A DNA stretch of 64,000 bases from Tumidithrix helvetica PCC 7403. GTDB taxonomy: Bacteria; Cyanobacteriota; Cyanobacteriia; Pseudanabaenales; Pseudanabaenaceae. Below, in pieces: positions 10,483-15,289 of this stretch. The notes beneath the pieces were generated by a model, which saw only the letters and a program-made list of their open reading frames with translations, made no database searches and had not been told where the DNA came from. A program made the position numbers and the translations under genes. Position 1 is the first letter of the stretch. Every line of letters starts with the position of its first letter. The stretch is taken from positions 1 to 64,000 of the forward strand of contig NZ_CBDDRA010000001.1 of NCBI RefSeq assembly GCF_965232925.1, given 5' to 3'.

Positions 10483-12585
10483 ATGAAACCGATCGTTACC
10501 AATTTAAAGTTCGCTCAATTCACGAAGATTGTATCCCTCGCTACAGCACTCATTGCTGCGATCGCTTCGACAGGCGTGACTTTCTCAGCAAGTTCCGCAC
10601 AGGCGAATACTGCTTCCAGCATTTCTCAAAGGGCAAAAAACACGACTTCTGTTGCTTCCACACCCAATAAGTTAGAAGCCAAGTCTGAGCCTTTATTTGA
10701 GACTGCTCAAAAACTTCAACAAGATCCTTCTCAAATCGCTCAAAATTCGAGTCAAACTGCCAAACGTACAGACGAGCAAACTGCGATCCCCATCCAGATG
10801 GCTGGTTTCGATCTGCCCATATGGATTTATCCTGTGGGTGGGGCAATCTTTCTGGTTTTCTTTTTGCCCCAGCTTGGTTGGATTTTAGGCTTAATTGTGG
10901 TGGGCGAACGAGAGGTTGGCATTGTAGTCAAGAAATTCTCTAGTCGTAGCCTTCCCCCAGGACAGTTGGTGGCACTCAACGGAGAAGCAGGGTTTCAAGC
11001 AGATACGCTCCCCCCTGGTTGGCACTTTGGCTATTTCCCTTGGCAATATAATGTCAAAAGAGAACCCGTGGTGGAAGTGCCGCAAAATGAAATCGGGCTA
11101 ATCTTGGCTAATGATGGTCTGCCCATTCCCCCCCAGCGCATTTTGGGTAAAGTCGTGGAATGCGACGATTTTCAAGATGCACGCAAGTTTCTTACGAGTG
11201 GTGGTGAAAAAGGGCGACAACTAGGAATTGTGACAGCGGGTACGTATCGAATCAATACGGCGCTATTTAGTGTAATCACATCTAAAAACTGCGCTCAGCA
11301 TGGCATGAGTCCTAAACAGTTGCTGGTACATACGGTCGATCCGAGTACGGTGGGAATTGTTACTACCCTAGATGGTGCGCCCATTGACGAGGGAGAGATT
11401 GCTGGGGCTATTGTTCCAGCTCATGACAACTTCCAGAAAGCCCAATCGTTTGTCGAGAATGGGGGGCATAGAGGTCTGCAAGAGCAAGTGATTCTTTCGG
11501 GCTCTTGGAATCTCAATCCCTGGTTTGCTGAGGTTCAGCAGGTTCCCATGACTGAGGTTCCCATAGGTTATGTAGGTGTGGTGATTTCCTTCGTAGGGCG
11601 ATCGCATGAAGATGTCAGTGGCGATTCATTTACCCATGGCAATCTCGTTAACGTTGGCAACAAGGGGGTTTGGGTCGATCCGCTTTACCCCGGCAAACAT
11701 CCTCTCAACACGCAAATCATGAAGGTGGAACTCGTGCCCACCACCAATATCGTGTTGAATTTCTCATCGCGGATCAACAGCGATCATGGCTATGATACTA
11801 AATTGAGTGCCTTGAAATTACTCTCCTTTGATGGTTTCACCTTCGATCTAGAGGTATTCCAAATCATCCATGTCGGCGCACAGGATGCCCCCAAAGTGAT
11901 TTCGCGACTCGGCTCGATGCAAAATCTCGTCGATCACGTTCTGCGCCCCATTGTCGGTAACTACTTCCGCAACTCGGCACAGGAATATACGATTCTTGAC
12001 TTCCTCACAGCCCGTAGCGATCGCCAAGCAGAGGCAGCAGAATACGTACGGGTAGCTCTCCGCGCCTATGATGTCATGGCAGTGGATACCCTGATAGGTC
12101 TGATTACGCCGCCGCCCGAGTTGATGCAAACCTTAACCGATCGCAAGATTGCCGAGGAACAGCAAAAAACCTACGAAGTACAGCGCGTTGCACAAACCCA
12201 ACGTCAAGAGTTGGTCAGAGAAACTGCCCTCGCAGATATTCAGCAGAAGGTAGTAACTGCCGAGCAAGGCGTGAAGATTTCGGAATTGGAGGCTAATTCC
12301 AGAGTGATGGAAGCCAATGGTGAAGCCGAATCCATTCGCGTGACGGGTCAAGCCAAAGCCGAAGTTTATCAAGCGGGTGTAAATGCTTTGGGTGCGCAGG
12401 GCTTTACCGCTTTACAACTCATGCAGGTAATCGGCGACAACGGCGTGCGTGTCGTGCCTGATGTCGCTGTCAGTGGTAACAACGGTGCAGGTCTGGTTGA
12501 TGGACTGATGGGAATGCTTTTATGGAATCAAACCAAGGAGAACCATGCTGAAAATGGCGGTCAGACTGTCACTGTGAATAGTTAG
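10483..12585 (+). CDS. flotillin-like SPFH/band-7 membrane protein of 700 aa
   Basis: There is a signal/TM N-terminus, an SPFH core (GIVVKKF...PPGWHFGYFPWQYNVKREPVVEVPQNE) and a C-terminal Ala/Glu-rich flotillin-type coiled coil. Confidence 0.75.
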   Translation: MKPIVTNLKFAQFTKIVSLATALIAAIASTGVTFSASSAQANTASSISQRAKNTTSVASTPNKLEAKSEPLFETAQKLQQDPSQIAQNSSQTAKRTDEQTAIPIQMAGFDLPIWIYPVGGAIFLVFFLPQLGWILGLIVVGEREVGIVVKKFSSRSLPPGQLVALNGEAGFQADTLPPGWHFGYFPWQYNVKREPVVEVPQNEIGLILANDGLPIPPQRILGKVVECDDFQDARKFLTSGGEKGRQLGIVTAGTYRINTALFSVITSKNCAQHGMSPKQLLVHTVDPSTVGIVTTLDGAPIDEGEIAGAIVPAHDNFQKAQSFVENGGHRGLQEQVILSGSWNLNPWFAEVQQVPMTEVPIGYVGVVISFVGRSHEDVSGDSFTHGNLVNVGNKGVWVDPLYPGKHPLNTQIMKVELVPTTNIVLNFSSRINSDHGYDTKLSALKLLSFDGFTFDLEVFQIIHVGAQDAPKVISRLGSMQNLVDHVLRPIVGNYFRNSAQEYTILDFLTARSDRQAEAAEYVRVALRAYDVMAVDTLIGLITPPPELMQTLTDRKIAEEQQKTYEVQRVAQTQRQELVRETALADIQQKVVTAEQGVKISELEANSRVMEANGEAESIRVTGQAKAEVYQAGVNALGAQGFTALQLMQVIGDNGVRVVPDVAVSGNNGAGLVDGLMGMLLWNQTKENHAENGGQTVTVNS

Positions 12586-12622
12586 TCTGCTGATAAGAAG
12601 TAACTTCCTTCTAAACATAAGA

Positions 12623-12649
12623 GGCAGTTCGTAATCGTTACGAACTGCC
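12623..12649. terminator. perfect 12-bp palindromic hairpin between the convergent flotillin and MVP genes
   Basis: ggcagttcgtaa-tcg-ttacgaactgcc. Confidence 0.5.
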
Positions 12650-12688
12650 CACAAAATCAAAATAAATCTACTAAATTTACAATGCATC

Positions 12689-15289
12689 CTACTGACCAAT
12701 CAGTCCAGTTGCCGTACCAAATAAATTGATTGGATTTTTGCCATCCGTGATTAAAACACTCTGGAGTCCCAAGGATTGTAATAAGCGAGCCTGCATCTCA
12801 GGCCCAGCCTGTGCCATTGCCTTAAGCGTTTCCGCTCCAATTGCTTCCACTTTTTCTCGAAATTCCACAGTATTGATCTGTGCCATGGCAGTAGCTTTAG
12901 CAATTTCTAATTCATTCAAAGCGCGTTGGTGCGCCAGCTCCGCCTCATAATTAGCTGTGAGCTTTGCGAGTTCGGCTTCATAACGAATCCTTGCGGCTTC
13001 GGTTTCCTGCTGTGCTAGATTCACGGCTAACTCACCTTGAATTCTGGCTGCTTCCGCTTTCGCTCTGGCTTCGGCGGTTGCGTGCCCCGTTGACTCGATC
13101 GCCGCATTCTCAGCTTGACATTCCAAAAGTTGCTTGCGTTCGAGTTCGGCAGCACCGCGATCGACAATGATTTGCCGTTCCAATCGGGCTTTAGCCTCTT
13201 GTTCGATCCGCTCAGCATCACGCCGCGCTGCCGCCTCTTGGGCATCCGTCGTAATTTGAATTGCAATTTGCACAGACTTTTGCAGGCTCTCTAACGTGCG
13301 TTCATCTACAGGTTCTACCGATTGGATGTCAATATTGGTAATCACGAGGTTATGCGTGCGAAAACGGAACTCATCGCGAATATGACCTTCCTCATCAGTA
13401 CCAAACACAGCCAAGCGAATAATGCGGGCAGAATTGCGATGGAACTCGTCGAACTTCACACTGGCAACCGCACCGCGTACCCGCGAAGCGATCGCCTTGC
13501 AAGCATCTCCGACAAAATCAGGAACTTGAAATAGATGTGCTGCTGCCGCTTCATCGTGGCGATCGACATCAAAGTACCAGTTGTAAGAAAGTTGGAGTTG
13601 CAAACGTGCGTGATCGCAGGTTTCCACGGTAAACACATCGGTCATAAAGTCGGGACCTAGCAACAAAGCCAAGGACTTGATCAGATTGGGTTGCTTGGGC
13701 TTCCCTCCTGACAAACTCAACACGGTAAAAGCCTCATCGGGCTCTAGCATGACCAGATCGGGACCAAATACGGTGCGTGCAGTTCTGTCTTTGTAATCGT
13801 GCAACTGTACGGCGGCATTTTGCGGTACGTGAAATACCACAGCTCTGGTGCGATCTCGTTTCACGATGCCTTGGGCGTACTCTTGAAGATTGAGTACAGG
13901 CTGACCGCGATCGCTGACAGGATTTCCTTTTTTTGTGAGGAGTTCTTCAACGATAGCAGGCAAATCTTTTTCCCACAGTTGCTCGTAGGGACTGAGCATA
14001 TAGGCTTGCGGCCCGCTGACGAGACGCAATTCTCCAGTTTGGGTATTGCGCACGTAAATCCCTTCATTCTTGTCTAAGGGAATCGCTTTGCGGCGCTCTA
14101 CGACCTCGACCTCCACACGCGGAATATAGTCTCTAGGTCCCGCCAGCATCCATAGATCGCCTGGCTGACGCTCGCTCGTTTCACCTTCGCCTTCGCTGAA
14201 GGCTTCTTTTGCCCTGAGTAAGAGTGATTCCTGTTCGCCGAGAATATAAATCGTTTGAATGCCATTCTCTAAAGACTCGCCTGGATGCAGGAAGAAAGAA
14301 GCTCTACCTTGACGTACTTCTCGCAAACCTAACTGAGGCTTGCCCGTGCGATCGATTGGATCGAGAACAATGCACCACTCGCGATCGCCGAGGGTTGTAA
14401 TTGCAACCTCCCCCACCACTTCTTCATAGACATCAGGGATGTGAATTTCAGCATCTTCGAGGGTGACCAACCACTGATCGCCTGCACGTCTTTGTCGTCC
14501 AAACACATCGGTAAACGTACGTCTGGCTCTAAGATGTAGGGCTTTTCGTTCGGTAAGAACGTAGGCTTTTAGCATATCCACGACTTCTTCATCAACACCG
14601 GGGAGATATGCGCCTTCTTCACGAACCAGCCATTCTTCACCAGCTCGGCGGCGAATTCCTTGACGATCTATACAGTCTTGGCGCGCGATCAGTCGCAGTG
14701 CTTGATTTGGCTTCATCACTTTAGCTGTCACTGTCTCTATCACTTCAACTTCCACACGCGGAATATAGGTAGCTGAACCCTCAAATAACCACTCTTCTCC
14801 CGCAGTGCGAGAAATTGTTTGCTCCTGTACCTGTCCATCTATGGATACTGAAATCTCATCCGTAAAGTCTCGAATTGCTCTGAGCCGAAGCGCTTGATTC
14901 ATCTCCACGACCTTCAAGCGCGTTACTTCTCCAACGAGTTCCTCATCTGGATAGAGCGGGAAAGGATCTTGGGCAAAACGGATTTCTTGATCGCCATAGT
15001 GCAAGCGCACTTGACCGTGTGGATCGACCATGGGTACTCCATCTCGATCGCGCATGACTGGGTTCGTGACAATGCAGTAGTGGCGGGGCGGTACGATAAT
15101 CATGGGCTCGGGGCGCAAGATCAGCCGTTCGTGATCTTTTAAGGTAATCGTCTGTGGTCCAATCTCTAAGCGCGTGATGCCAGTATTGTTATCCAGAATG
15201 TGAATGAATTGTTGAGGTTTGAGGCGAATTACCCCTGCTGAAGTCGCTTGCACTTCTTTGGCTTCAAGTCTGCGATCGCTGGCTTGCAT
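12689..15289 (-). CDS. major vault protein (MVP) homolog, full length at 866 aa, with MVP repeats, shoulder domain and cap-helix coiled coil
   Basis: The N-terminal repeats [12 protein letters not shown]...[27 protein letters not shown] align closely with eukaryotic MVP repeat units. The C-terminal [22 protein letters not shown]...[29 protein letters not shown] matches the MVP cap-helix and cap-ring. The ORF contains several HIP1 sites, so it is resident cyanobacterial DNA rather than contamination. Confidence 0.9.

Follow-up and report, generated by a model that had tools for sequence, protein, structure and literature searches.

A probable lineage-specific genome junction between convergent SPFH and MVP genes in Tumidithrix helvetica PCC 7403

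We analysed a 64,000-nucleotide (nt) stretch of the genome of Tumidithrix helvetica PCC 7403, hereafter called the window, in which a gene for an SPFH protein and a gene for the vault protein MVP converge; all coordinates refer to this window. Open reading frames (ORFs), coordinates and Pfam matches all agree with an earlier note on this DNA, which had described a 700-amino-acid (aa) SPFH gene and an MVP gene converging 103 bp apart. Both proteins are 100% identical to T. helvetica PCC 7403 database entries. The features of the locus, several of which are defined by comparison with the sister species T. elongata, are the following.

9885-10187, minus strand: RRM_1 RNA-binding protein gene (Pfam), within the left synteny block common to T. 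elongata.
10483-12585, plus strand: SPFH gene, 700 aa (ORF call, Pfam).
12586-12688: spacer between the convergent stop codons, 103 bp.
12586-12612, plus strand: end of the left block, 27 nt past the SPFH stop codon, still homologous to T. elongata (blastn and alignment).
12613-15405, no strand assigned: lineage-specific segment of 2793 bp with the hairpin, the MVP ORF and its 116-bp leader, which neither of the corresponding T. elongata flanks has.
12623-12649, no strand assigned: hairpin with a perfect 12-bp stem and a 3-nt loop, inside the lineage-specific segment.
12689-15289, minus strand: MVP gene, 866 aa (ORF call, Pfam, alignment to rat and human MVP).
15290-15405, minus strand: MVP 5' leader or promoter-proximal region, lineage-specific, 116 bp.
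15406-15964, plus strand: start of the right synteny block, with an upstream region and the SH3_3 gene (15560-15964), 93-97% identical to T. elongata.

Comparison of the window with two contigs of T. elongata, whose SPFH ortholog is at least 90% identical, showed that the two genes lie on opposite sides of a break in homology. The left contig of T. elongata (L066) carries AAA_35, DUF1176, RRM and SPFH genes in the same order as the window and aligns to window positions 8657-12612 at 92.9% nucleotide identity (blastn). This identity stops 27 nt past the T. helvetica SPFH stop codon, about 10 nt short of the hairpin, so that the break falls at 12612/12613. Beyond it, T. elongata has another hairpin (GGGGGCAA-cgtga-TTGCCCCC) and then a gene for a 151-aa pentapeptide-repeat protein. 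No residual homology beyond 12612 was found in L066, the local alignment being no better than 76% of shuffles. The right contig of T. elongata (L070, 72.6 kb) carries the SH3 ortholog and aligns to window positions 15406-25577 at 93-97% identity, with the break at 15405/15406; downstream of the SH3_3 gene, this right block contains DUF4335, DUF3038, MBL, OprB and other genes. On the other side of SH3, T. elongata has genes for an NB-ARC/WD40 protein, a catalase and a lipoxygenase, and the first of these stands where MVP does in T. helvetica.

No MVP was detected by tblastn in either T. elongata locus, and none from T. elongata was present among the top 120 matches to the T. helvetica MVP, of which the second-best was 80-81% identical; the SPFH and SH3 proteins of T. 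elongata are in the database. Since both synteny blocks end at breakpoints without MVP, segment 12613-15405 is absent from both T. elongata flanks. Because the homology break falls between SPFH and MVP, the two genes were neither inherited nor acquired as a pair.

The 2.8-kb segment contains HIP1 sites within MVP, and its G+C content is like that of the flanks (0.44-0.51 throughout). Neither terminal repeats nor a target-site duplication were found around it, no mobile-element genes lie beside MVP, where the flanking genes are ordinary, and the MVP gene had no match on PLSDB plasmids. The marks of a mobile element or genomic island carrying MVP, namely an integrase or transposase, repeats, a tRNA target, deviating composition and plasmid copies, were thus not found, and phage records gave only weak matches to the shoulder region.

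We then determined whether MVP and SPFH genes are neighbours elsewhere, as the earlier note had proposed to check in other MVP carriers, using 56 MVP loci from other species (one genome per species, up to 10 kb on each side). Searched by tblastn with the SPFH protein, these loci gave nothing at E<=1e-3, the best E being 0.79; the MVP control was recovered in 56 of 56. A hidden Markov model (HMM) of the SPFH family built from 120 homologs and a broader HMM built from 77 diverse representatives (about 30-55% identity) recovered, among 1239 ORFs, the window's own gene only. Genes near the closest MVP homologs (L062-L065) likewise included no SPFH gene. For this SPFH family, the proposed neighbouring was therefore seen in none of the 56 species and not in these four loci either, which is the outcome that the earlier note had named as refuting its proposal. 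The family itself, of the "flotillin/YqiK-like" kind, is widespread in cyanobacteria (66-80% identity). Four orthologous loci, from Pseudanabaena PCC 6802, a Phormidium chromosome, Aerosakkonemataceae BLCC-F50 and a contig of a metagenome, had no MVP within 10 kb of the SPFH gene.

A Pfam scan of the two nearest ORFs on each side of MVP gave 179 and 213 families, the commonest of which, Response_reg, occurred in 4-5 of about 100 ORFs; Band_7 was not present in the top-25 Pfam lists for either side. The upstream neighbours that were scanned singly encode a UvrD helicase, an HTH-TPR protein, a NACHT protein, an NB-ARC-TPR protein, a symporter, SNF2, DUF3854 and RNase R. Because the neighbour families are this heterogeneous across the 56 loci, cyanobacterial MVP is a gene without any conserved neighbour. 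Two candidates for a wider linkage were rejected. The first was a second linked pair, suggested by the length of 21,229 bp of the contigs of both P0021 (MVP homolog) and P0124 (SPFH homolog), but these contigs are different and their content is unrelated. The second was a large cluster of 24 loci resembling a conserved upstream partner, which was produced by single-linkage chaining of PAS/GAF histidine kinases.

The neighbouring of SPFH and MVP is thus probably a lineage-specific genome junction in T. helvetica and not a functional or co-inherited pair, and we infer that the two genes are not functionally coupled. MVP would be a self-contained monocistronic unit of 2.8 kb, in which the ORF has a short leader and a stem-loop of its own; it sits exactly between two blocks that are each about 93% identical to T. 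elongata and neither of which is flanked by MVP in that species. The SPFH gene, which is common in cyanobacteria and has the same upstream synteny in both Tumidithrix species, would be chromosomal and vertically inherited. In T. helvetica, the ancestral sequence downstream of SPFH would have been replaced from 27 nt past the stop codon, T. elongata keeping that sequence with its different hairpin, and the MVP-side hairpin is now the sole strong structure in the spacer. The event may have been a gain in T. helvetica or a loss or rearrangement in T. elongata.

The frequency of SPFH genes bears on how readily such a junction could arise by chance. A survey reported 3121 SPFH proteins in 664 cyanobacterial species, or about 4.7 genes per genome (PMC9950537). 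If about 5000 genes per genome and about 57 MVP-bearing species are assumed, any SPFH gene would stand beside a given gene in about 0.2% of genomes, which gives a chance of about 10% of at least one case among the MVP-bearing species. Coincidence is acceptable, if not overwhelmingly so, because neighbours that look interesting are selected post hoc. It was one of three readings offered in the earlier note and is the only one to survive the absence of the pair from the 56 loci and the position of the break between the genes.

Several points weigh against a simple junction. For this SPFH family alone, the chance of adjacency would be about 2/5000 per genome, or roughly 2% across about 57 species, as a rough estimate, which is low enough to leave some doubt about coincidence. 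The SPFH neighbour also belongs to a multi-repeat family, and the known structure nearest to its model is MVP. Since its assembly is in fragments, T. elongata could have a split MVP elsewhere in the genome, and the view of each neighbourhood spans 10 kb to either side. Finally, other SPFH subfamilies near MVP are excluded only as not recurrent, since up to 1 of 105 downstream ORFs and up to 3 of 91 upstream ORFs could fall below the top-25 lists.

Among the alternatives, the one that fares best holds that the SPFH-MVP adjacency is ancestral in Tumidithrix and that MVP was lost in T. elongata by a rearrangement that also replaced the spacer; the arrangement would then be older than the species and confined to the genus, and would still be no evidence of a function. 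We regard this as possible but somewhat doubtful. The T. helvetica MVP has diverged from other cyanobacterial MVPs (73-81% identity) about as much as the SPFH protein (66-80%), which is inherited vertically, MVP has HIP1 sites and a host-like G+C content, and the T. elongata genes differ on both sides of the junction (pentapeptide repeat on one side; NB-ARC/WD40, catalase and lipoxygenase on the other), which suggests a rearrangement over a clean insertion. However, the pairing was found in no outgroup, and no Pseudanabaenales genome is among the 56 MVP loci.

A partnership confined to this lineage, in which a membrane SPFH cage and a soluble vault shell cooperate (for example by docking of vaults at SPFH microdomains), their adjacency being selected and the shared hairpin coupling their expression, is improbable. 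The functional membrane-scaffold partnership put forward in the earlier note found no support in the 56 MVP loci, none of which is paired and among whose recurrent neighbour families Band_7 does not figure. T. elongata retains its SPFH gene without an adjoining MVP, and elsewhere SPFH orthologs occur widely where the genome or locus has no MVP. In addition, the two genes cannot be co-transcribed because they are convergent, and neither a shared regulatory element nor an Rfam match was found.

The third reading, an acquired pair transferred horizontally as one cassette, would accord with the patchy distribution of MVP over Cyanobacteria, Thiotrichales and Chloroflexota, which resembles that of a horizontally transferred gene, but it is refuted by the position of the breakpoint and has next to no probability left, because T. 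elongata keeps SPFH and its upstream neighbours in identical synteny (93% nucleotide identity) without MVP and the break at 12612/12613 separates the two genes; the flat G+C content, the HIP1 sites in MVP and the lack of mobile genes, terminal repeats and plasmid copies also count against it.

The spacer hairpin consists of two arms (12623-12634 and 12638-12649) that are complementary at 12 of 12 positions around the 3-nt loop, and on the minus strand it extends to 13 pairs (12622-12650). It lies in the middle of the spacer, 37-38 nt from either stop codon, and its sequence is single-copy within the window. On either strand, the spacer folded better than each of 200 dinucleotide shuffles, with z values of -4.7 and -3.7. 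The stem has a T-rich tail on its 3' side, CTTATGTTTA, on the MVP (minus) strand only; on the SPFH (plus) strand, an A-rich run, CACAAAATCAAAA, comes after it. A scan for terminator patterns reported, at the hairpin, the minus-strand site only.

Bidirectional intrinsic terminators of convergent bacterial genes need a flanking pair of an A-tract and a T-tract in order to act symmetrically; Ju, Li and Liu are said to have described examples in 2019. The spacer hairpin shares with them a single stable stem centred between convergent stop codons and differs in that just one strand, that of MVP, carries a T-rich tail and the flanks do not form an A-tract/T-tract pair. Of the single bidirectional hairpin terminator described in the earlier note, the perfect 12-bp stem between the stops is thus retained, while the U-rich tract would be present on the MVP transcript only. 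Because of this T-rich tail, the hairpin most likely terminates transcription of MVP; it probably also stops the SPFH transcript or stabilises the 3' end of that transcript. The alternative that it is the SPFH gene's own fast-evolving terminator, with homology continuing beyond the break, was rejected, local alignment past 12612 being no better than 76% of shuffles.

The hairpin is a real, ordinary and asymmetric stem-loop of the terminator type. Of the 36 intergenic regions of the window, 6 contain a perfect stem of at least 12 bp, mostly at gene 3' ends, and terminator-like sites in the region are not more numerous than in shuffles (8 vs 7.3). MVP genes of other species have a perfect stem of at least 8 bp within 150 nt of their 3' end in 21 of 49 cases, and the sequences of these stems are all unrelated. 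Further perfect stem-loops of 16-18 bp were observed at gene 3' ends of the window (39643-39677, 49000-49040 and 55809-55847), and long perfect hairpins appear to be the usual terminator style of the T. helvetica genome. A dispersed family of intergenic palindromes was also observed, GTAGGGGCAATTCATGAATTGCCCCTAC with the related arms GCCCCTAC...GTAGGGGC, at window positions 25257-25298, 38220-38247 and 26638-26661.

The SPFH protein was then examined for its architecture. Its Band_7/SPFH match (PF01145, aa 358-573, E 3e-22) is that of the SPFH/Band 7 superfamily, and no flotillin-specific signature beyond the generic Band_7 was found. Ahead of this match lie tandem repeats of about 80 aa, of which R1 (190-275) and R2 (276-352) are 33% identical (E 5e-12) and R1 and R3 match at E 0.006. 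The SPFH domain of the "flotillin/SPFH" neighbour named in the earlier note is thus confirmed, but the protein is not a plain flotillin, having tandem repeats that resemble those of MVP. An AlphaFold2 model was obtained from a diverse alignment of 71 sequences, a model from a shallow alignment (pLDDT 44) having been discarded; its pLDDT is above 90 for aa ~120-580 and its pTM is 0.65. The parts of the protein are as follows.

aa 1-107: N-terminus, poorly conserved.
aa 115-135: hydrophobic helix, putative membrane anchor (predicted model).
aa ~136-465: four tandem beta-rich units (predicted model).
aa ~466-545: alpha/beta SPFH2 domain (predicted model).
aa 545-652: long helix of about 100 residues, candidate coiled coil (predicted model).

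An exhaustive search of a library of representatives at 50% identity gave 2663 relatives of the SPFH protein at E<=1e-3. They include proteins of 1200-1800 aa with up to 12 stretches matching the repeat region. Pfam scans of four large relatives showed many repeats, a single Band_7 domain and a VWA domain at the C-terminus in three of them (P0251, P0252 and P0258). The sole sequence match of the SPFH protein in the PDB was QmcA (E 0.007). Foldseek comparison of the model with the PDB ranked MVP first (9r86, E 1.9e-12), and the alignments with MVP entries span about 610-760 columns, against about 315-350 for prohibitin, erlin, stomatin, HflK/C and flotillin.

That the MVP shoulder has an SPFH fold, as the earlier note had stated, is supported by published work (PMC13347060, PMC12915596), and a description of 2026 (PMC12915596) treats MVP repeats R1-R9 as homologs of SPFH1, counts the shoulder as SPFH2 and takes the cap helix for the SPFH coiled coil. 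The modelled architecture of the SPFH neighbour agrees with this reading of MVP. At the level of sequence, Pfam Vault models were silent on the SPFH protein and on its large relatives, hhalign of the repeat units with MVP gave a probability below 1%, and BLASTP and a shallow profile-profile comparison of the SPFH protein with MVP were negative; the C-terminal helix regions of the two proteins gave a weak match (probability 76%, E 2.4e-5). In the model, the SPFH units are structurally like MVP repeats, and homology at the sequence level was not detected. The vault-like repeats of this family would accordingly be a lead and not demonstrated homology.

Compared with canonical SPFH cages (prohibitin 9O9Z, erlin 9O9U, HflK/C 7VHP/7WI3, stomatin, QmcA 8Z5G and flotillin 9BQ2), the SPFH neighbour adds about three beta-rich units of about 55-85 aa between the putative anchor and the SPFH domain. 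We group the Synechocystis flotillin homolog Sll1021 (PMC9950537) with these canonical cage proteins. The MVP homologs of Asgard archaea, which carry five repeats (PMC12962969), are alike in being prokaryotic and in having fewer MVP-like repeats ahead of an SPFH/shoulder domain and helix; the SPFH neighbour differs from them by its predicted membrane anchor, by the lack of Pfam Vault detection and by the lack of repeat-level sequence similarity to MVP.

It is conceivable, though unlikely, that the SPFH neighbour stands for a large family of bacterial SPFH proteins, anchored in the membrane and hitherto undescribed, in which an SPFH1-like unit has been multiplied (to about 3-4 copies here and as many as about 12 in the VWA-bearing relatives) and in which these units are true homologs of MVP repeats. 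Its corollary, that the adjacency to MVP reflects a real functional link, is weaker. The predicted layout of the family, with an anchor, tandem MVP-like beta units, an SPFH domain and a long helix, would be intermediate between canonical SPFH half-cages and the vault, and the family bears on the open question of the origin of the vault repeat domains (PMC12962969, PMC13100048, PMC12915596).

The 866-aa MVP carries Vault (four matches), Vault_2 (two), Vault_3, Vault_4 and MVP_shoulder, at E values from 1e-15 to 4e-64, and it is colinear from end to end with rat, human and rabbit MVP without large gaps (query 15-865 vs 2-850, E ~1e-297; phmmer, 7pkz). Its parts are as follows.

aa ~15-544 (nt 13658-15247): MVP repeats.
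aa 545-662 (nt 13304-13657): MVP shoulder (PF11978, E 1.5e-53).
aa 663-866: cap helix and C-terminus.

Like the eukaryotic vault shell (rat 4V60 and 7PKZ, human 9R86), the T. helvetica MVP has every Pfam family of vault repeats as well as a shoulder and a cap-helix region; it differs in being bacterial. No conserved vault ribonucleoprotein partner (vRNA, TEP1 or vPARP) was found near MVP in the local neighbourhoods of the 56 loci or by Rfam, whose scan of 9000-17000 gave no match and no vault RNA. No sigma-70-like match was found in the MVP leader (15290-15405, minus strand). PADLOC and NCBIfam gave no matches, and PHROGs gave only a generic SPFH "lipoprotein" family.

Bacterial MVP homologs, annotated as "colicin uptake protein", have already been reported (Daly et al. 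2013, PMC3762200; Sokolskyi 2019, bioRxiv 10.1101/872010), and because they are known, finding the pair is of low interest. The T. helvetica MVP belongs to the same family and is 73-81% identical to many MVPs of filamentous cyanobacteria; what is new is the host genus (Tumidithrix, Pseudanabaenales) and a presence/absence difference between sister species with mapped breakpoints. The gene pair as posed is of little consequence, being probably an accident of one species with an ordinary hairpin. T. helvetica PCC 7403 and T. elongata, at about 93% nucleotide identity, nevertheless form a natural pair with and without MVP at these flanks and with clean breakpoints, which is convenient for probing the role of the bacterial vault protein.

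MVPs of large sulfur bacteria (Thiotrichaceae, Thiomargarita and Ca. Parabeggiatoa; L034, L035, L040 and L051) and of filamentous Chloroflexota (Anaerolineae, Chloroflexaceae and Oscillochloris; L031, L032, L037, L045 and L054) are 65-73% identical to the cyanobacterial protein, compared with 70-81% between cyanobacteria. These near-equal identities across phyla suggest cross-phylum transfer among large or filamentous bacteria. Three uncultured megaphages (LR756500, LR756501 and LR756503; 462-735 kb) gave weak tblastn matches (28-32% identity) confined to the MVP shoulder region (aa 483-674), which are probably phage SPFH/shoulder-like proteins.

Two smaller differences were observed on the left side of the locus. 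The TAG stop codon of the T. helvetica SPFH gene corresponds to CAA in T. elongata, where the ORF is six codons longer (700 vs 706 aa; window 12583-12612 vs L066 5038-5067); the shift is recent and lies directly before the synteny breakpoint. Upstream, the CHAT/AAA_35 ORF (344 aa, 7658-8692) ends within the start of the DUF1176 ORF (8664-9713), and AAA_35 matches no more than the first third of it. This ORF may be a STAND-type gene that has been truncated, and its T. elongata counterpart is a 199-aa AAA_35 fragment in the same place.

The sole recurrent immediate upstream neighbour of MVP was a Pkinase-WD40 gene (about 790-845 aa), found in four loci 80-1150 bp upstream on the same strand (L038 and L049, from uncultured bacteria; L053 and L055, from Okeania), with about 53% identity between the two pairs. 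In Pseudanabaena PCC 6802, Phormidium and Aerosakkonemataceae (L057-L059), another Pkinase-WD40 gene (604-627 aa) comes downstream of the SPFH ortholog and has its orientation. An indirect link of MVP and SPFH through this gene was considered and rejected, as the MVP-side and SPFH-side copies are only about 31% identical in the kinase domain and hence paralogs. No Pkinase-WD40 gene lies in the window, where the 611-aa ORF at 20225 is an OprB porin, and the SPFH-side gene is also missing from the T. elongata SPFH contig.

Downstream of MVP, the most recurrent cluster comprised six loci (L001, L008, L010, L011, L016 and L021), in which a gene on the MVP strand probably encodes a class-V aminotransferase or cysteine desulfurase. 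The Pfam batch scan also reported SrpI-like type 2A encapsulin shell genes in two ORFs downstream of MVP, probably those of L008 and L010 (Oscillatoria), at a distance of 0.6-4.6 kb; if true, a second protein-cage system would adjoin the vault gene in these loci.

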